Below are positions 1-24,005 of a DNA stretch of 37,820 bases, piece after piece. Within the stretch, counting starts at the first letter, position 1. Each line of letters opens with the position of its first letter. The notes below the pieces were generated by a model. It worked only from the letters and a program-made list of their open reading frames with translations. It was not told the origin of the DNA and ran no database searches. The position numbers and the translations under genes were made by a program. The stretch comes from an uncultured Chloroflexaceae bacterium. GTDB lineage: Bacteria; Chloroflexota; Chloroflexia; Chloroflexales; Chloroflexaceae. The stretch lies in contig CAZVEN010000021.1 in assembly GCA_964626155.1 (NCBI GenBank), forward strand, positions 15,825 through 53,644, given 5' to 3'.

Positions 1-258
1 CAGGATGCGGGTGCTACGGTACGGGTTTGGCGGTGCCAAACCCACGGGGCTTGCCGCTGGCAAGCCCGTACCATAGCCACACGGGTAGTAGTAGCACCGG
101 TTTCTAGCCGGACTTCGGCAGGATGCGGGTGCTACGGTACGGGTTTGGCGGTGCCAAACCCACGGGGCTTGCCAGCGGCAAGCCCGTACCATAGCCACAC
201 GGGTAGCAGTAGCACCGGCTTCTAGCCGGACTTCGGCAGGATGCGGGTGCTACGCGGG
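1..258. repeat. 118-bp tandem direct repeat, 2 full units (1-118, 119-236) plus an 18-bp partial third unit; the array is cut by the window edge
   Basis: Units 1-118 and 119-236 are near-identical, with 3 differences. Each unit folds as a 10-bp outer stem (13-22/68-77) enclosing two 9-bp hairpins (23-31/35-43 and 47-55/59-67). The second hairpin loop is GCT in unit 1 and AGC in unit 2, an exact loop inversion. Confidence 0.9.
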
Positions 259-4598: not shown

Positions 4599-6248
4599 AT
4601 GCACACGTTATTGGTGCAAGGGCAACCTATTACAGATGCATGTGTGACAGAGTGGCAGGAAGTTGCATTTTCTTGTGTGCCACCGCACAATTGCACACTG
4701 GCGTTGACGATAGGCGATACATTGCACCCTGTGCTGCTGCAACCATTTTTGCTGCCGGGCGACCCGGCATGGCGCTGGCGCTGGAATCCGCAGAATACTG
4801 TCGGACATGTTGCCTTTACTTTGGCTATAACCGGGCCAGATGGGCACGTTGACTATGAATATGGGCATCTGCATGTTGTGCCACGCAAGATAGACCAAGA
4901 GCAGTATCAGGCTTTGCTTGATGATTTGCAACGGTTCATACGCTTGCTTGTCTTTTCTTTGCCGGGGAGTATGGTAGGGACACGGGAGAGTGATGCACCA
5001 GAAGAAATACCAACTGAATGCAGCATTATAGAGATGTATTATCGCTTCTTGCGAGAGCGTTTGACAACGCTTGAACAGGCAGTACGGCACATTGCTCAAC
5101 ATCCACATACCCAAACCTGTGTAGGCACGAAACGGGAACCGGTGGGACACGCACATGATTTTTCGCAGGTTGGCGAAGATGTTGCGCGTGGGCAGCCGGT
5201 GTACCCATTTCCAATGCATGCGGTACCGCTGTTTCGACAAGCTCAACAACCGCGCAACAACATACACCATCTGCCAGAGGAAGTTCCCCAGAGTGCTATG
5301 CTAGTAGATGTGGATACGTATGAAAACCGGCTGCTCAAGTGGGTGTTGCATGAGCTATGGCACCGCGCACAGGCAATTGCTACGCTGACGTCTCATGAAA
5401 AAGCGTTTTTACCACAGGTGACACAAGGGTACACAGAGGAAATACACCATAGTGTGCAACGGTTGGCGCAGGTGCGTTCGCTGCCGTTGTTGGAAGGGGT
5501 CAAGACGCTTTCTGTTTTCCATGGGGCAACGTACACTATTCGACATAACCCTTCCTATCGTCAAATCTACCGCTTATGGCAAGAGTTACACACTCTGCCC
5601 GCGCTCGATGTTGAGAGCGATATATTCCATGTGCCAGTGCATGAACTACCACAGTTGTATGAAGTGTGGTGTGTGGTGCAGGTGATGGCGGCTTTGCTGG
5701 AGCAACCGGGCGTTCGTGTGCGTACACAGCGTTTTATCGCACAGAAGGATGGGAGTCGCGGGCATACGTTTGGTCTTGTTGAGGATGTTCCATTGCTTAT
5801 GCTCAATTGGCACGATGTGATTATTTGTTTGCGCTATCAGCCACGCTATTACCCGTTGCACAGTGCGCACATTGCACAGTGTGAGGAGCATACAGAGACA
5901 ATAGGCTCTCTCGATTGTCACATGCACAAGCCAGATATTGCTATAGAGATGATGCATCCTGCACAATTGCCGTCTGTGTTGCTGTTTGATGCCAAATATC
6001 GCCTGACGGCCAGTGGGGGCGTGCCAGAAGATGCGCTGGCCGATATGTATACCTACCTTGGGAGTATTGGAACATATCCCGATAAACGTGTTGTGCAACA
6101 AGCTGCGGTGCTCTATCCGGGCGAGAGGGTTGCAGAGCGCTATGCAAGTGGCGTGGGTGTGTTGGGGCTTGTGCCGGGCTGCCGGGCTAGGCTGCGCGAG
6201 TGGGTGGCATTGTGGCTACTAAGAAATGGTGCGAAAGGCGTAGGATAG
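4599..6248 (+). CDS. PD-(D/E)XK nuclease-like protein (McrC/DUF2357-like) of unknown function
   Basis: 549-aa ORF that starts 8 bp after the DUF2207 stop, so the two are probably translationally coupled. The C-terminal region has HKPDIAIEM...LLFDAKYR (D...E.K nuclease core) preceded by LPQLYEVWCVVQVMAAL, which resembles DUF2357/McrC-type nucleases. The last ~30 nt overlap the GGCTTCTAGC repeat element. Confidence 0.55.
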   Translation: MHTLLVQGQPITDACVTEWQEVAFSCVPPHNCTLALTIGDTLHPVLLQPFLLPGDPAWRWRWNPQNTVGHVAFTLAITGPDGHVDYEYGHLHVVPRKIDQEQYQALLDDLQRFIRLLVFSLPGSMVGTRESDAPEEIPTECSIIEMYYRFLRERLTTLEQAVRHIAQHPHTQTCVGTKREPVGHAHDFSQVGEDVARGQPVYPFPMHAVPLFRQAQQPRNNIHHLPEEVPQSAMLVDVDTYENRLLKWVLHELWHRAQAIATLTSHEKAFLPQVTQGYTEEIHHSVQRLAQVRSLPLLEGVKTLSVFHGATYTIRHNPSYRQIYRLWQELHTLPALDVESDIFHVPVHELPQLYEVWCVVQVMAALLEQPGVRVRTQRFIAQKDGSRGHTFGLVEDVPLLMLNWHDVIICLRYQPRYYPLHSAHIAQCEEHTETIGSLDCHMHKPDIAIEMMHPAQLPSVLLFDAKYRLTASGGVPEDALADMYTYLGSIGTYPDKRVVQQAAVLYPGERVAERYASGVGVLGLVPGCRARLREWVALWLLRNGAKGVG

Positions 6249-15837: not shown

Positions 15838-15985
15838 CAGCGCCTCTGCGTTGCATCTTAACGCAAAAGCGCAAAGGAGCAAAGACGCAAAGGCCGGAAG
15901 GCATGGTACGTAGATTATCTCTCTATGCAAGAAGGTGAAGCTGGTCCCATATTAGAAGTCTTCAATGCCAGTTGCATCTTAACGC
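15838..15985. repeat. octamer-repeat element copy
   Basis: CAGCGCCTCTGCGTTGCATCTTAACGCAAAAGCGCAAAGGAGCAAAGACGCAAAGG. TTGCATCTTAACGCA is repeated at 15972. Confidence 0.6.
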
Positions 15986-16337: not shown

Positions 16338-16359
16338 GAGACGTTGCGTGCAACGTCTC
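16338..16359. repeat. GAGACGTTGC-GT-GCAACGTCTC palindrome directly 3' of the NACHT gene
   Basis: Perfect 10-bp arms, from the same family as 8443-8528. Confidence 0.8.
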
Positions 16360-16362
16360 AAC

Positions 16363-16444
16363 CACTCAATCGCCCCATCGCCCCATCGCTCAATCGCTCA
16401 ATCCCTGACCCCTGACCCCTGACCCCTGACCCCTGACCCCTGTC
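16363..16444. repeat. compound microsatellite: 8-mers (CTCAATCG/CCCCATCG x5), then 7-mer CCCTGAC x5 (+1 degenerate) overlapping the last 18 codons of the NACHT gene
   Basis: Read directly from the sequence. The 7-mer array (16403-16444) encodes ...GVRGQGSGVRGQG on the minus strand. Confidence 0.9.
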
Positions 16445-19400
16445 ACCGCTTGCACAACCGCCCTCACCTGCGCCGGGTACGCCTGTGCCAGCAACTCACA
16501 CATAGCGTAGGCAGACTCGACGGAGTAAGCACAGGGGATGAGCAACTGCTTGAAATGGGACAAATCGCCCGCCTCTAGCAACTCCTCAGCATCAATCGTC
16601 TGTACGGTTTGGAGTGCGGCAGGAAAATCGCCTGCACGTGCTTGGGCTGTGACGATAGCTGACAACGCTTTCACACGTCTTCGCCCATGGTCAATCGTCT
16701 GTGCGGTGTGGAGCGCGGCAGTGGAATAGCCTACACGTGCTTGGGCTGTGACGATAGCTGCCAGTTCCTTCGCACGGTCCCAATCATCATCAATCATCTG
16801 GGCGGTGTGGAGTGCGGCAGAAAAATCGCTTGCCTGTGCTTGGGCTGTGGCGATAGCTTCCAGTACCTTAGCACGCTTTTCCGCATCGTCAATTGTCTGC
16901 GCGGTGTCGAACGCGGCAGTACACGTTTGACGAGCATCATCGTGTAAACCGGCCTGTGCTTGTGCTGTGGCGATGTCTGCCAGTGCCTTAGCACGCTTTT
17001 CCGCATCGTCAATTGTCTGCGCGGTGTCGAACGCGGCAGTACACGTTTGACGAGCATCATCGTGTAAACCGGCCTGTGCTTGTGCTGTGGCGATGTCTGC
17101 CAGTTCCTTAGCACGCTCTTCCGCATCGTCAATCGTCTGTGCTATCTGGAGTGCAACCGCAAACACATGGCGCTCAGCCAGCTTGTCACACAAGTCTGCA
17201 CGTTTGTAATCATCCAGCAATTGTTGTTGCAAGCTGACAAGCATGTGCTCATCAATGCCAGACACAACCGGTAACAACATAACCGCATATTTTGCTTGCT
17301 CAACATCTAGTCGTGGCAACCGCTCCGCCAGCACACGCTCCAGCCTTTTGCGTGCATCGGATTCATGTCCATTGTCATGCAATTCCCATGCCAGCAGTAG
17401 ATACCACAACACTCGCTGCTTGGCATCAACCAAGTCTGCCAATGCCCATGCTCGTTCTATATTGCCTTCGCGTAATGCGTCGAGTGGGCTTTCTTGGGCA
17501 ATATCGTGTGCTTGGTATACGTGTAGCAACAGCATTCGTGCCATAGTGCCGGCGTCGTCACAGGTTGCGGCCCCCTCTAGCGCTACTTGTATAGTGCGTA
17601 GCGGTAGGTTTGGCTCGGTGGGGAAAGCAGTTGCTTGCTCCTGCTGGAAAATCTGATTTTCTGCAAGGTCATAGAGCGTTTGCCAATGCTGTGCTTGCTG
17701 TAGATGTTGGGCATAGTGGCGCAAGGCGTAGCGGCTATGGTGTTCTGTCCAGCGAAGGCAGTAATTTATCAATTCCTCCAGAAAGAGAACAGTTTTCCCT
17801 TTCAATTTGCGTTTTGTTAAATAGTTTTGAAAGCGCGGGTGACACAACGCATAACTACTATGACCTAGTTGTCCTCGGTGTTCTATGACAAAACGGCGCA
17901 CAGGGTCCAGTATTTGATCAAAAAACCATTCCATGTTTGGGTAGAGACGAAAAAGGTCCTCAGATGGCAGTGGACCAAGAGCTACCATCAAAATGCCTAG
18001 CAAGTTACGTATGTCCTCTTCATTCCGCAATGCTTTGCTCACTTGTTGCCACCAACCATCCAGGTAGCTCTCTAGCCCTGCGGGTTGTTGCGCTATCTGG
18101 GCCTCGCTTATGCGCCCATTGGCAATGTCCTTAACCAGATAGCGTACATAGAAGGGGTCGCCTTGCGAGACGCGCAGGATTTGTTGGAGGAAGTGTTCCC
18201 ACCCTAGCCCCCCCTGCGAGAGGGAATCGGGCATCTCCCTTTCGTCGGGGGGGCCGGGGGATGAATCGGGCATCTCCCCCCCGTGTACGGGGGGGACGGG
18301 GGGGGAATCCGCAATGGCTTTAAGCAACAGTTGCTCGATACCCGCTAGGTCAAGCGTTTCTAGGCGTATAGCCAGCACATCGGTTTGCGGCAACCCCAAG
18401 CGCTGTAGGTCGTCGCGCCCGGCCTGCTCGCGGGCCGAGAAGATGATGAACTTGCCCGTTGGTAGCTCACGCGGTATGTGTAGGTCACGGATAAAGTCAT
18501 CCTCGGCTTCGTCTAGCCCATCAATGACGAGTACGAGTGGGCGACCAGCCTGCACCAATGGCATGCGGAGTAGTTTGGCATACAGCGCTTCCAATTGTCC
18601 CGGTTCGTGTTCGGGTGGCAGGGTTGCTTCTATCTGATAGTAACTCAACATTTGTTCACACATTTGGCGCAGGAAATCTACGCGCCGATGCGTATTGTCG
18701 AGGCGGTTGAGGAAATACCAGCAGTAGCGCTCGTGTTCAGGCGCAACCAGGTTGGCTATCAGTGCCGTTTTGCCATAGCCCGATGGGCCGGTGATGAAGA
18801 CGTAGCCACGTGAACGGCTTGCCAAAAAGTTACGGATTTGTGCTAGTTCGTCATCGCGCCCGGCAAACAGCGTGTGGCGCTCGAAATAGTTGGTTTGCCC
18901 TTCGCGCAACTGGGCCAGTGTGGTGCGGCGTTGCGCGAGGAGCATGCCGGCCTGTATGGTGTAGTCGGGCATAGCAAGTCCACGGGTGAGCTTGCCAATC
19001 TCAGTGTGCAACGAATGCATCATGTCTTCAAGGTGTTGTACGCCTGTTTCTGTACGTGTAGCTATTGCCTCGGTGCGTTGGGTTGTTGTGTCAATAAAGG
19101 TGATGGTTTGCTCCATCCGTGTCAGTGTGTCTTTGAGGTGCTGCATGCTCTCGTGCAGAGGTTGCAAAGCTGTGTCTAGGGCGTCGTCGCCCGTGGGGTC
19201 ACGCTGGTTGGCAGGCTGAGTTTGCAATGTTTCTGCCCACTCCTGAAGCCATAGCACAACCTCGCGGATGTCATCAGTCGTTTGGCTTATCTGGCTTATC
19301 TGCACAGTGGTTTTGGCAAGGCTTTGCTGCCATAGCAATTGATATGCCCGCCATGCGCGTGTGCCTTGCTCGCTTGGGTCTTTCAACTCCTCCCGGAAGC

Positions 19401-20019
19401 GCAACATCCACTCATCGTAGAGATACTGGGCAATATGCTCAACTATACCAAGGGGTTGGTTGGTAAAAAAGTCGTCACGCAACTTTTGCACAAAGAGCGT
19501 ATTGGCTGTCGTTTGGGCTTCGTCAATGTGGTTGGCGTTCATTACCTGGGGGAGAATATGCACACAAGCGTGAATCTGGTCATTGAGATGTTCAAGCGTA
19601 ATGAGTTCGTCAGCGGTGCTTTGTGCTTCCTCATGCAGGCGACGCAATTGGTTGTGCAAGCGCGAACGTTGATCGGGGCGGCGCAAGTGGTTTAGCCATT
19701 GAGGTTGTGCCTCGCTCATGTTGAGCACATGGGCTATCGCTTCTGGGGTCGTAGCCCGTTCCAACAAGGTATGCCAATCGCGGTAGATTTGCTTTGCTGC
19801 TGCATTGAAGGCACGTGCGAGTGCTTTGGCAATATCGTGGTTGAGTGCGCCACGCTCGCTGAACCAGCCGGCCCGCCAACGCTGATAGCTCTGCTCGGCA
19901 AGGCTAGAAGCCCAATTCGTACCTACCCCACCAATAGATGCAAGCAGGTATTCAGATGCGCTTTCGGCTGTTTTCAGCCCAACAGTAGCAAGTGCGCCTG
20001 TGAGTATAATTTCGAGCAT
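16390..20019 (-). CDS. NACHT/STAND-family P-loop NTPase (bacterial NLR-like) with uncharacterized ~370-aa helical N-terminal region and C-terminal 40-aa helical repeat array
   Basis: 1209 aa. Walker A GPSGYGKT, Walker B LVLVIDGLDEA, then a helical/WH region, then at least 5 repeats of the form AQTIDDAEKRAKALADIATAQAQAGLHDDARQTCTAAFDT. No recognisable enzymatic motif in residues 1-370. Confidence 0.85.
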   Translation of the reverse strand: MLEIILTGALATVGLKTAESASEYLLASIGGVGTNWASSLAEQSYQRWRAGWFSERGALNHDIAKALARAFNAAAKQIYRDWHTLLERATTPEAIAHVLNMSEAQPQWLNHLRRPDQRSRLHNQLRRLHEEAQSTADELITLEHLNDQIHACVHILPQVMNANHIDEAQTTANTLFVQKLRDDFFTNQPLGIVEHIAQYLYDEWMLRFREELKDPSEQGTRAWRAYQLLWQQSLAKTTVQISQISQTTDDIREVVLWLQEWAETLQTQPANQRDPTGDDALDTALQPLHESMQHLKDTLTRMEQTITFIDTTTQRTEAIATRTETGVQHLEDMMHSLHTEIGKLTRGLAMPDYTIQAGMLLAQRRTTLAQLREGQTNYFERHTLFAGRDDELAQIRNFLASRSRGYVFITGPSGYGKTALIANLVAPEHERYCWYFLNRLDNTHRRVDFLRQMCEQMLSYYQIEATLPPEHEPGQLEALYAKLLRMPLVQAGRPLVLVIDGLDEAEDDFIRDLHIPRELPTGKFIIFSAREQAGRDDLQRLGLPQTDVLAIRLETLDLAGIEQLLLKAIADSPPVPPVHGGEMPDSSPGPPDEREMPDSLSQGGLGWEHFLQQILRVSQGDPFYVRYLVKDIANGRISEAQIAQQPAGLESYLDGWWQQVSKALRNEEDIRNLLGILMVALGPLPSEDLFRLYPNMEWFFDQILDPVRRFVIEHRGQLGHSSYALCHPRFQNYLTKRKLKGKTVLFLEELINYCLRWTEHHSRYALRHYAQHLQQAQHWQTLYDLAENQIFQQEQATAFPTEPNLPLRTIQVALEGAATCDDAGTMARMLLLHVYQAHDIAQESPLDALREGNIERAWALADLVDAKQRVLWYLLLAWELHDNGHESDARKRLERVLAERLPRLDVEQAKYAVMLLPVVSGIDEHMLVSLQQQLLDDYKRADLCDKLAERHVFAVALQIAQTIDDAEERAKELADIATAQAQAGLHDDARQTCTAAFDTAQTIDDAEKRAKALADIATAQAQAGLHDDARQTCTAAFDTAQTIDDAEKRAKVLEAIATAQAQASDFSAALHTAQMIDDDWDRAKELAAIVTAQARVGYSTAALHTAQTIDHGRRRVKALSAIVTAQARAGDFPAALQTVQTIDAEELLEAGDLSHFKQLLIPCAYSVESAYAMCELLAQAYPAQVRAVVQAVTGVRGQGSGVRGQGLSD
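16861..17100. repeat. two near-identical 120-bp direct repeats inside the NACHT gene (40-aa repeat units)
   Basis: 16861-16980 and 16981-17100 differ at one base. Flanking units are diverged copies. Confidence 0.9.
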
Positions 20020-20039: not shown

Positions 20040-20140
20040 TTTATGAGCTCGCGCCAAGACGCAAGGAATGCAAAAATCACGAACCTTGTCTTTGCGTTGC
20101 GTCTCTGCATCTCTGCGCCTCTGCGTTGAAAATGTACATT
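20040..20140. repeat. octamer-repeat element copy (partial; right end homologous to 11660-11719)
   Basis: TCTCTGCATCTCTGCGCCTCTGCGTTGAAAATGTACATTTCATGTAGGGTTGCTATATGC. Confidence 0.6.
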
Positions 20141-20684: not shown

Positions 20685-21992
20685 CTACCCTCTATTGTTC
20701 TCCTCGTCGCTGCCCCCCGTACCGGGCGCTGGTTGTTGCGGCGGCTGCCCTTGCTGTTGCTGGGGTGGGTAGCCCTGTTGCTGTGGTGGGTAGCCCTGTT
20801 GTGGCGGGTAGCCCTGTTGTGGTGGGTAGCCCTGTTGTGGCGGGTAGCCCTGCTGTTGAGGTGGGTAGCCCTGCTGTGGCGGGTAGCCCTGCTGTGGCGG
20901 ATAGCCCTGTTGTGGCGGGTAGCCTTGCTGTGGCGGGTAGCCCTGTTGTTGAGGTGGATAACCCTGTTGTTGAGGTGGATAACCTTGTTGTTGTGGCGGA
21001 TAGCCCTGCTGTGGCGGGTAGCCCTGTTGTGGCGGGTAGCCCTGCTGTGGCGGATAACCCTGTTGTGGCGGATAGCCCTGTTGTGGCGGGTAGCCCTGTT
21101 GTGGCGGGTAGCCCTGTTGTGGTGGGTAGCCCTGTTGTGGCTGCATAGACTGATTCATCATATTGCCCATACCCATGCCCATAGCCAACCCCATGCCCGC
21201 TTCCATAGGCCCGCCAGCACCACCGGGGTTGGCGGCGGCCACACCCATAGCCTCAGCAGCCTTATAGCGCATATAGTCCGATTGTGTTGCCGCCATCATC
21301 GTTTGCGCCTCTTGGGCCTTCTGCACACGTTCCCACGTTGCTTCGTCTACCGATATTTCCTCTACATAAAAGTCATTTATCTTCAGCCCAATTTCCTCAA
21401 ACAAGCTAGATAGCTTCACCCGCGAAGCCGCATTCAGCTCCTCCGTCAGAGTTTGCAAGTCAATAACCGACGTTTTCTGAGACGTGACAAGCTTGCGCAT
21501 AATAGAAACAATCCTACCGCGCATATACTTCGTCAAATCTCTCGTACTGTAAACCCCTTGCTGTCCCACAATCTCATTAACAAATGAAGCCGGGTCGGCT
21601 ACCTCGCAAGAATAGCCCCCAAAAGCACTCAGTTGTGTCATACCGATAAAAGGTTCTGGGTCTTTGTACATCACCTTGCCCATACCCCACTTACCTTCAA
21701 ATCGTTTTTCCGTATTGACAAACACAACTTCAGCTTGAAACGGCGTCTTGCCACCCGTTACCCACCCAACAATCCCGGCCAGTATGGGAATATTGGCAGT
21801 GCTGATAGTGTGTCGGCCCGGGCCGAGCACATCGCGTGCTTTGCCTTCATAGAAAAAGAGCGCTACCTGCCCCTCACGGACAATAACTTGAGACCCAATG
21901 CGAAAATCGCCGGGCCCATATTCCGGCTCACGGTGAACAATCTCTTCGCCGGAAGAGTCAATAAATTCAACAACATCAATAAATCGTGGCAT
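20685..21992 (-). CDS. SPFH/band-7 domain protein (COG4260-like) with C-terminal 20x QQGYPP low-complexity tail
   Basis: N-terminal [51 protein letters not shown] resembles COG4260 SPFH proteins. Residues ~286-410 are (Q)QQGYPP repeats; there is no C-terminal Zn ribbon. Confidence 0.8.
20757..21147. repeat. 18-bp (occasionally 21-bp) tandem repeat array, ~20 units, encoding QQGYPP
   Basis: GGTGGGTAGCCCTGTTGT variants repeat head to tail. The reverse-strand ORFs 20733-21413 and 20765-21148 are artifacts of this array. Confidence 0.9.
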
Positions 21993-22556: not shown

Positions 22557-22692
22557 ATGTAAGGGTCTCCTTCTACCAATGACGAATAACACGATAGAGA
22601 GCATAGCACGTCATCAAATACTACAATCATTGTACCTTATTTGCCGTGAAAAACAAAGGGGGGGGATGGAAGTGTTCGTAAACAAGTTTTTA

Positions 22693-22760
22693 CCACAGAG
22701 AACACAGAGAACACAGAGAGTGCTTTTCTCTTCGTGTTCTTTGTGCCTCTGTGGTGCTCT
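22693..22760. repeat. inverted heptamer-repeat element CCACAGAGAACACAGAGAACACAGAGAG / CTCTTCGTGTTCTTTGTGCCTCTGTGG
   Basis: The two arms can pair. Related to 2745-2790 and 20655-20668. Confidence 0.6.
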
Positions 22761-22886
22761 ATTTGCTAACTACCAAGACACAGAGGACAAAGAGGACATG
22801 GATGATAAACAGAACATATGGGGGTTGTGCTTGGCAATAGAAATATCGTGGTGAGAGGATAGGTAGCAGTTTGTGAGACTGCTACG

Positions 22887-24005
22887 CTACCCCTCTGCCA
22901 AGGCAGAAATATCAGCAAGAGAAAGACCGGTGATGTCGGCAATGAGCGATGGCTCAAAGCCCTTAGCTTGTAAGTTGCGCACAGTGTTGCGCTGTGTTTC
23001 GCGTGTACGTTCGCGTTCCAAGCGAGCAAGCTCTTCGGCTTCGCGTGTACGTTCGCGTTCCAAGCGAGCAAGCTCTTCGGCTTCGCGTGCGCGTTCATCG
23101 GCTTCGCGTGCGCGTTCGTCGGCTTCATCCAAGCGCTGAACAACATACTCTGCGCGTTCTTCTGCTATGCGGCGAGCTTGCACCATTTCTGTATAATCTA
23201 CAACCTTGTGTCCTTGCTCATGAAACCAGCATATATCATCTTTGCCCAGACCTACATACATTTTAGCGGCTTCAATCCACACACGCCCGTGTGTATCAGG
23301 TTGGCACAAATCATAGAAACCGAGCCTATTCAAGCAATAGACGTATAGCTTAGGAAGGGTACCTTCAGGTGCATCATCATCGGGAAGGTCTAAGACGATA
23401 TAGACAGCAATGCCCGCCTCTGCATAGATTTCCCATTTTGAGCGTAACCCAGGATGTTCCCGTTTTTTGTATTCAAAGAGGCGTAGCTCTTTTTCTGTCA
23501 GCAAAGAAGGGTCCATATCTAAACAGCGTGTTCCGGGCGAGGTAATTTCCAAAACCACTTCTACTTTAGCGCCTTCGTCTTTGACATAAAACGTGCTCCA
23601 GTTGTAATTTTTTGGTCTTTTGATGCCAGAGACCAGAGCAGCATCGGGTGCAACTGGACGTAGACCGGGTAAACCCAAATCTATACGCATTTCTTTTAAG
23701 ACCACCATAGATGGTTTATGTTGGCTAGAGGCCCTCATAGCATTGTACGAATAGGTTTGAGAAATGGTATGGCGATTACGAACAGACACCTCATCCCCCT
23801 CCTCTGGGAACAATACATCCAAGATAGTCAATGGGCGATATTCGCTTATTTCGGTGCCATCGGGAAGCACCCGGGTAGAATAACGCCAGCCAAATTCTTC
23901 TTCCTCTGCTCTTTCTGTTGTTGTTGTTGGTATGAAGGTTCTTTTTTTGGTAAACGGCTTTGTATATTCTAGCACGTCGGTTGTTGTAGGATAGACAAAA
24001 GACAT
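22887..24005 (-). CDS. Uma2 family endonuclease with extended N-terminus and ER-rich coiled-coil C-terminal tail
   Basis: RPVAPDAALVSG...VVLEITSPGTR..D...K...YAEAGIAVYIVLD matches the Uma2 core. The tail carries a perfect 48-bp tandem duplication (EELARLERERTREA x2) and ends in LIADITGLSLADISALAEG. AAGGAGG RBS. Confidence 0.75.
   Translation of the reverse strand: MSFVYPTTTDVLEYTKPFTKKRTFIPTTTTERAEEEEFGWRYSTRVLPDGTEISEYRPLTILDVLFPEEGDEVSVRNRHTISQTYSYNAMRASSQHKPSMVVLKEMRIDLGLPGLRPVAPDAALVSGIKRPKNYNWSTFYVKDEGAKVEVVLEITSPGTRCLDMDPSLLTEKELRLFEYKKREHPGLRSKWEIYAEAGIAVYIVLDLPDDDAPEGTLPKLYVYCLNRLGFYDLCQPDTHGRVWIEAAKMYVGLGKDDICWFHEQGHKVVDYTEMVQARRIAEERAEYVVQRLDEADERAREADERAREAEELARLERERTREAEELARLERERTRETQRNTVRNLQAKGFEPSLIADITGLSLADISALAEG

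Follow-up and report, generated by a model that had tools for sequence, protein, structure and literature searches.

Here we describe a G/C-rich, low-complexity insert in the coding sequence of a STAND (NACHT/AAA_16-type) NTPase, found in a 37,820-nt stretch of contig CAZVEN010000021.1 from an uncultured Chloroflexaceae bacterium (this whole stretch is called the window below, and all coordinates are its own). The gene is an open reading frame (ORF) of 1209 amino acids (aa) on the minus strand, and in mid-gene it carries five homopolymer runs of 7–8 G or C residues within 100 nt, together with a direct repeat. The gene and the parts of its insert are as follows.

16390–20019, minus strand: ORF of the STAND (NACHT/AAA_16-type) NTPase, 1209 aa (ORF list and translation)
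18268–18309, minus strand: tandem unit 1, 42 nt, GATTCCCCCCCCGTCCCCCCCGTACACGGGGGGGAGATGCCC, encoding D571–P584 (DSPPVPPVHGGEMP) (Tandem Repeats Finder, TRF, and unit alignment)
18229–18267, minus strand: tandem unit 2, 39 nt, GATTCATCCCCCGGCCCCCCCGACGAAAGGGAGATGCCC, encoding D585–P597 (DSSPGPPDEREMP) (unit alignment)
18196–18228, minus strand: third GATTC junction and residual ancestral linker (DSLSQGGLGWE...) (alignment and homologue codons)

The initial annotation had reported five G/C tracts and a repeat in a segment of about 50% GC, and all of this could be read back directly from the sequence. The tracts are C7 at 18208–18214, G7 at 18247–18253, C7 at 18276–18282, G7 at 18289–18295 and G8 at 18298–18305, with an additional G5 tract at 18256–18260 lying among these five longer runs. 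The direct repeat is a perfect 16-mer, GAATCGGGCATCTCCC, that occurs twice, with starts at 18224 and 18263. The GC content of the window is 49.4% and that of the 111-nt tract region 72%. On the minus strand the region is translated as ...ADSPPVPPVHGGEMPDSSPGPPDEREMPDSLSQGG... inside the ORF at 16390–20019, and translation, Pfam matches and comparison with homologues together bear out the low-complexity insert that had been claimed in the NACHT coding sequence, and mark it as lineage-specific.

The two units of the insert stand head-to-tail, each beginning with GATTC on the coding strand, and a third copy of GATTC follows unit 2. Aligned with one another they are identical in 33 of 42 columns (79%) with a single 3-nt gap, and TRF reports a period of 42, 2.2 copies and 77% matches over 18222–18309. 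With at least two head-to-tail copies, and with periods that are multiples of three, the insert certainly qualifies as a tandem repeat that is intragenic and in frame. Unit 1 carries coding-strand runs of C8, C7 and G7. The corresponding runs in unit 2 are C5, C7 and only G3, so that two of them are broken up or shorter than their counterparts, and the purity of the runs has not been uniformly maintained. Beyond the units, the remaining coding-strand G7 (C7 at 18208–18214 on the plus strand) encodes G603–G604, the GG position that is conserved across the family.

This cluster of tracts is far beyond chance, and it is not explained by the peptide, by codon usage or by base composition. Five of the seven G/C runs of at least 7 nt in the window fall in the insert, the remaining two being G7 at 521–527 and G8 at 22658–22665, and a Poisson estimate from the background run rate puts the probability of such a cluster at P ~6e-14. 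Five runs never arose when the 72%-GC region was shuffled by mononucleotides (0 of 100,000; maximum three), nor in synonymous recodings of the insert peptide drawn from the codon usage of the window (0 of 200,000; maximum four). Codon choice is equally skewed: all nine proline codons of the insert are CCC and five of its six glycine codons are GGG, compared with 24% and 25%, respectively, elsewhere in the window, where PP is written as CCCCCC in three of 46 instances and GG as GGGGGG in one of 50. Given this uniformity of the proline and glycine codons, it is the DNA, not the peptide, that dictates the sequence of the insert.

The protein that carries the insert consists of an N-terminal region (aa 1–380) in which no Pfam match was found, a NOD module spanning approximately aa 385–830, and a C-terminal series of helical repeats. 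Pfam models of AAA_16 (1e-13), NPHP3_N and NACHT (28.8 bits, for a cut-off of 26.7) match aa 385–561, all above their cut-offs, and the Walker-type motifs GPSGYGKT and VIDGLDEA are invariant across the homologue alignment. The protein therefore has the P-loop with Walker A and B motifs, the helical and winged-helix domains and the C-terminal repeats of the STAND/NACHT-type NTPases. An AlphaFold model of aa 360–830 is of good overall confidence (predicted local distance difference test, pLDDT, 85.7; predicted template-modelling score, pTM, 0.81), and because its best structural matches in Foldseek are MalT (8bob), Avs3 (8dgc), Apaf-1 (3shf), SAMD9 and a STAND-TPR protein (6mfv), the modelled region is identified as a STAND NOD module of the NLR-like kind.

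The model also places the insert more precisely. The initial annotation had set it between the NACHT and helical domains of the protein; it does lie inside the NACHT/STAND gene, but not exactly at that boundary, the site being the first inter-helix loop after the nucleotide-binding domain, immediately upstream of the conserved RVSxGDPFY motif. Residues 213–238 of the model, which correspond to aa 572–597, are its sole internal low-confidence coil and run between a helix ending ...IEQLLLKAIA and the helix that leads to RVSQGDPFY. The insert is thus predicted to form a disordered loop in an otherwise confident fold.

That the gene is a costly defence gene, as had also been suggested, is an inference. 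It is a NACHT/STAND gene of a conflict-like type: among its homologues the N-terminal domain varies (SLFN/AlbA_2, trypsin-like, kinase, caspase-like and TIR), as is typical of NLR-like conflict proteins. A role in defence would be putative, the PADLOC match being weak: the search gave no significant full-length match to a defence model, only a partial one to STAND_TPR (1.7e-14, aa 382–509) above what was otherwise noise, and an NCBIfam search of the 1209-aa protein gave no match. The neighbourhood may be called defence-island-like only loosely. In the same window as the gene lie a DUF2357 plus PD-(D/E)XK nuclease gene (4599–6248) and two Uma2-family genes (318–1091 and 22887–24005), and the window also contains housekeeping genes (glnA, an aldo-keto reductase and a sugar transferase). 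The GlnA encoded here is 82% identical to one from a Chloroflexaceae MAG, with the next matches at 66% or below, which makes the host a probable Chloroflexaceae relative. A cyanobacterial source, which the heptamer repeats and the Uma2 and WD40 genes had brought to mind, was rejected on the strength of this match and of the lack of any HIP1 site.

Other parts of the same gene are repetitive as well. The C-terminal helical repeats are encoded by 99-nt (3.4 copies, 76%) and 120-nt (2.6 copies, 95% identical) DNA repeats at 16585–17139 on the minus strand, a pattern that suggests that repeats of the putative sensor have recently been expanded or shuffled, a process known from NLR-like proteins of fungi and bacteria. 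At the very end of the ORF, a heptamer, GGGGTCA, is repeated 5.7 times (16403–16442, minus strand; TRF and sequence) and makes up its last ~14 codons, which encode the tail GVRGQGSGVRGQG. Translation stops inside an adjacent octamer array (GATTGAGC/GATGGGGC) that is followed by a terminator-like hairpin, the whole arrangement occupying 16357–16442 on the minus strand, and in the alignment homologues terminate ~15 aa before the end of the heptamer-encoded tail. The heptamer array thus gives the gene another simple repeat able to shift the frame, although a change of its copy number would alter the frame of the tail only; it is also a canonical G-quadruplex (G4) motif on the mRNA strand.

Comparison with homologues argues that the insert is a late addition to this protein. 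It is absent from 13 of 13 and from 21 of 21 aligned homologues, and a filter-only HMMER (phmmer) scan of 1.84 billion representatives returned 3984 relatives, of which the best 150 were inspected: nearly all of these 150 align in two stretches that split at query residues 209/250, which is where the insert lies. The linker between two conserved anchors (aa 520–568 and aa 613–640) was measured in 108 homologues. It is 15 aa long in 80 of them and ranges from 11 to 24, apart from one unrelated linker of 47 aa that is not Pro/Gly-rich, and none of the 108 has a Pro/Gly-rich insert at this place. Here the linker is 44 aa, 29 residues above the mode of 15, and 27 of these 29 fall in the two units; with both units removed, 17 aa are left. 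In the two closest homologues for which DNA was compared, the conserved GG is written GGC GGC and GGC GGT, and there are no runs at the site. Judged by these comparisons, the insert is lineage-specific and unique to the 1209-aa protein among the homologues compared. We also considered whether it might be ancestral sequence read between two compensating frameshifts, and rejected this origin, as the insert translated in the +1 and −1 frames shows no resemblance to the linker of the family (GGxAxxWADDP) and removal of the units leaves a recognisable linker of 17 aa.

The exact protein is represented by a single record, in a cluster with no other members. Its nearest full-length relative is 50% identical and its nearest partial relative (P0125) 66% identical over the NTPase domain; no relative above 66% identity was found. 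In P0125 (JGI 3300067032, a contig of 1481 nt) the STAND gene was called as three overlapping ORFs on the same strand (3–395, 392–865 and 822–1481), with one frame break in the linker that corresponds to the insert site and a second 430 nt upstream. This arrangement is uninterpretable, and the break could be a real frameshift, a pseudogene or the result of read errors. A search with the 46-aa peptide of the insert region gave no candidate sharing three common 5-residue words, although it did not return the source protein itself either.

A further question is whether the insert might be an artefact of assembly or sequencing, that is, spurious low-complexity sequence joined into the contig. An intact ORF is weak proof of authenticity here, because a G/C-only insert is free of stop codons and has a one-in-three chance of being in frame. 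Its structure is ordered, however: two units of 79% identity stand in register, bounded by GATTC and sharing a perfect 16-mer, and homopolymer miscalls alter lengths but do not make such units. The insert also falls exactly in a tolerant loop, and the NCBI records include an identical protein of 1209 aa, encoded on a 95.5-kb contig. We therefore regard an artefact as barely credible.

The initial annotation had proposed that a change of ±1 nt in a tract would truncate the protein and remove its C-terminal repeat array, and in silico both consequences follow. In any of the tracts, +1 leads to a product of 629 aa and −1 to one of 604 aa, compared with 1209 aa at full length, and both products are without the winged-helix region and the whole of the array; in the −1 product a TAG stop comes directly after the last run. 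All three reading frames are open across the insert, so that an opposite change in another run would restore a full-length protein with a rewritten loop. In addition, the perfect 16-mers, 39 nt apart, could allow a unit to be lost or gained in frame, slippage between direct repeats being the general basis of such changes.

These properties raise the possibility that the runs are a selected contingency cassette, in which slipped-strand mispairing in any one run toggles the protein between full length (ON) and a stump of 604 or 629 aa (OFF, or of altered activity). A second change elsewhere would restore the frame, which would make switching fast in both directions and rewrite the loop as a side-effect. 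The tract length, the in silico ON/OFF consequence and the over-representation of runs are those expected of a contingency locus, and the over-representation is independent of peptide and codon usage. As to whether tracts of this length are classic contingency sites, as had been stated, runs of 7–8 G/C do reach the candidate phase-variable class, G/C tracts of at least 7 nt being over-represented in Neisseria (PMC5084427), and a mid-gene C7 tract in glpK of M. tuberculosis is a proven reversible switch (bioRxiv 10.1101/717272); the same length is nevertheless at the low end for fast switching unless mismatch repair is absent. Phase variation by a homopolymer tract has been reported for brxX of BREX/Pgl (PMC6326788). 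In prokaryotic genes poly-G/C tracts are, as a rule, rarer than expected, which makes five together conspicuous, but homopolymer switches usually lie near the 5′ end and those described here are mid-gene (PMC2831843). Further points also speak against such a cassette: open frames are automatic in G/C-only DNA, the runs of unit 2 have decayed, the host is apparently a free-living, filamentous Chloroflexaceae relative, and a stump made up of the N-terminal region and a nucleotide-binding domain on its own could do harm instead of acting as a clean OFF state. On balance we think a selected switch of this kind unlikely, if worth keeping in view.

A more specific version of this idea is, in our estimation, less likely again. 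Here the disordered loop, free of stops and with five G/C runs complementary to one another, would be a multi-tract frameshift cassette of a filamentous, multicellular Chloroflexota bacterium. Individual cells of a filament or population would stochastically switch the sensor-bearing protein off, to a stump of 604 or 629 aa, and on again by way of any other run, with the loop rewritten each time. The cassette would thereby be a slippage-based counterpart to hypermutation by diversity-generating retroelements (DGRs), which acts on STAND sensors in multicellular bacteria (PMC10907252); we hold this to be improbable.

The runs of the insert are also mutually complementary, and a number of nucleic-acid features can be placed at the site.

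18207–18254, no strand assigned: hairpin 1, an imperfect palindrome pairing C7 (18208–18214) with G7 (18247–18253) (inverted-repeat search and folds)
18275–18296, no strand assigned: hairpin 2, a perfect palindrome, TCCCCCCCGT-GT-ACGGGGGGGA, pairing C7 (18276–18282) with G7 (18289–18295) (inverted-repeat search and folds)
18289–18305, plus strand: canonical G4 motif, GGGGGGGACGGGGGGGG, on the template strand (regex scan)
18247–18270, plus strand, and 18198–18214, minus strand: further G4 motifs at the insert (regex scan)

The arms of hairpin 2 are 10 nt long and 100% complementary, and are followed by AC and by the G8 tract (18298–18305). When 131 nt of the mRNA are folded, the minimum free energy is −70.2 kcal/mol (z = −3.3), a stability that none of 200 shuffles equalled, and the DNA fold of the insert region has z = −2.25. 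A regex scan of the whole window found five distinct G4 motifs. Three lie at the insert and a fourth, at 16403–16440, is in the heptamer tail, so that four belong to the STAND gene; the fifth is at 21754–21776. These sites are candidates by motif match, and their folding as G4 would compete with the hairpins. The insert has no Rfam match at the gathering threshold, the window has no tRNA, and a search for internal promoters and terminators gave nothing at the insert, a weak terminator-like match at 18162–18178 being within shuffle expectation.

The structure itself may in principle be what is selected: mRNA hairpins, template-strand G4 motifs or PPV/PPD stalls would slow transcription or translation after the nucleotide-binding domain, and this slowing could aid folding or set the level of expression. 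The stability of the mRNA fold and the concentration of four of the five G4 motifs of the window in this one gene are consistent with such a role, but structure of this kind follows automatically from neighbouring C- and G-runs. Since none of the 108 homologues has such a structure at the site, it is not needed for the function of the family, and we consider selection for structure highly unlikely.

Hairpins bounded by short repeats are also what a miniature palindromic mobile element would leave behind. In this reading an element like the Rickettsia palindromic elements (RPEs), or like a repetitive extragenic palindrome (REP) or miniature inverted-repeat transposable element (MITE), was inserted in frame, with GATTC as its target-site duplication. 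The two hairpins and the 5-nt direct repeat at the unit borders suit this, and in-frame insertions of RPEs that add loops to proteins are documented (PMC10969869). A flanking pattern of GATTC would, however, equally be produced by tandem duplication, and no dispersed copies were found. GAATCGGGCATCTCCC has no further copy in the 37.8-kb window with up to three mismatches allowed; the specific DNA pattern of the insert has no match in 185,579 species-representative genomes, a set that does not include the source genome; and the bare 16-mer, too short a pattern, gave more than 120 single metagenome matches, which are attributable to chance and show no extended similarity, along with three single viral matches. 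Because both copies lie head-to-tail at one site, local duplication is indicated rather than transposition, and a mobile element seems to us quite unlikely, slightly less so than selected structure.

Taken together, the evidence leads us to favour, at a probability of roughly 60%, a simpler history in which the insertion is young, lineage-specific and in frame, was born at the DNA level by slippage or duplication, and is tolerated in a disordered loop with a peptide that has not been selected for. A GATTC-bounded unit of ~40 nt would have been doubled (to 42 + 39 nt) beside a related ancestral segment by local slippage or tandem duplication, and hairpin-templated copying possibly turned a C-run into the matching G-run. 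Since DNA made only of G and C contains no stop codons and the extra length is divisible by three, the STAND NTPase would have accommodated the product as a Pro/Gly-rich, disordered loop on the surface of its helical domain. Together with the perfect direct repeat of 16 nt, the runs would then make the site intrinsically unstable: single frameshifts would give the 604- and 629-aa truncations, paired +1/−1 events would rewrite the loop only, and slippage between the 16-mers would add or remove 39 nt in frame. A by-product of slippage and duplication fits the locus well because of its two diverged tandem units, the C/G hairpin pairs, the interrupted runs of unit 2 and the repeat-rich segment in which it lies. 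Both the slippage origin and the instability of the site are inferred.

Some observations weigh against this history. The five runs are pure and every proline codon is CCC despite ~21% divergence between the units, a purity that exceeds simple neutral decay and that selection for mutability could explain. Origin by slippage and duplication moreover gives no source for the first unit. It is also not mutually exclusive with a switch, as a loop that arose by slippage could later have been co-opted. DNA-level slippage would nonetheless be sufficient as an ordinary explanation, with the contingency switch a mechanistically sound candidate beside it.

The rest of the window is rich in repeats, several of them coding and in frame. 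An 18-nt repeat (20 copies, 85% matches; 20767–21141) lies in frame in a gene for an SPFH/Band-7 protein (ORF 20685–21992, minus strand), where it gives rise to ~20 copies of a hexapeptide in the C-terminal half. A 42-nt repeat (2.4 copies, 96%) with an overlapping 21-nt repeat (2.4 copies) is found at 22998–23126, again in frame, in the Uma2-like ORF at 22887–24005 (minus strand); this ORF, a putative restriction endonuclease, thus carries a coding repeat with a 42-nt period equal to that of the insert in the STAND gene. At the edge of the window (1–254) a 118-nt tandem repeat (2.2 copies, 97% identity) with internal palindromes adjoins the Uma2-family ORF at 318–1091. Intergenic tandem arrays with units of 8–9 nt occur at 1920–1943, 2758–2782, 15862–15894, 20098–20126, 22694–22719 and 22777–22798 (units CGCAAAGAA, CTTTGTGTT, CGCAAAGG, TGCGTCTC, CACAGAGAA and GACAAAGAG), and at 22694–22760 an array is followed by its inverted complement; these arrays look like a family, perhaps one that is characteristic of the lineage and has a role in regulation or an association with terminators. 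The neighbourhood as a whole supports a general propensity for repeat-generating events.

Whether the runs vary in length determines what the locus would mean. If they do, a multicellular bacterium that lives freely would have an NLR-like gene subject to phase variation, of an unusual design with redundant tracts in a loop that is open in all frames, and slippage would join DGRs and repeat shuffling as a cheap means of modulating costly cell-death or defence sensors. If they do not, the insert would be a clean example of slippage, duplication and hairpin-templated copying making a new protein loop, with the amino acids a by-product. In either case the insert could serve as a marker with which to type strains of the lineage and to gauge how error-prone and unstable its homopolymers are.

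Among known systems, the insert resembles contingency loci (the C7 of glpK, the poly-G/C tracts of Neisseria and Campylobacter, and brxX/pglX of BREX/Pgl) in having pure 7–8-nt G/C runs in a coding sequence of a conflict- or defence-like gene, where ±1 truncates the product. It differs from them in that five runs rather than one occur within 100 nt, and in that these are mid-gene, paired in hairpins and inside a recently duplicated insert. With the intragenic minisatellites of bacterial surface and sensor proteins, of the variable-number tandem repeat (VNTR) type, it shares head-to-tail in-frame units (42/39 nt), a disordered peptide and, in its 16-nt repeat, a means of unit gain and loss; unlike a typical VNTR, it has ~2.2 copies that are 79% identical, and its unit is dominated by homopolymers and self-complementarity. 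Like RPEs and MITE-like elements, it is short palindromic DNA that adds a tolerated loop to a conserved protein, but its unit is ~40 nt rather than the ~100–150 nt of such elements, and its copies are tandem, not dispersed. The protein as a whole recalls the Avs, bNACHT, MalT-type and STAND-TPR NTPases of multicellular bacteria, some of which owe their diversity to DGRs or to nearly identical repeats in the sensor, in its tripartite layout, in the swapped N-terminal domains of its relatives and in its 95%-identical sensor repeats, and departs from them in having no strong PADLOC defence match and in carrying its variable element in the NOD module instead of the sensor. The nearest conceptual neighbour is the DGR hypermutation of STAND sensors: DGRs target the sensor, and the insert described here sits in the NOD module.

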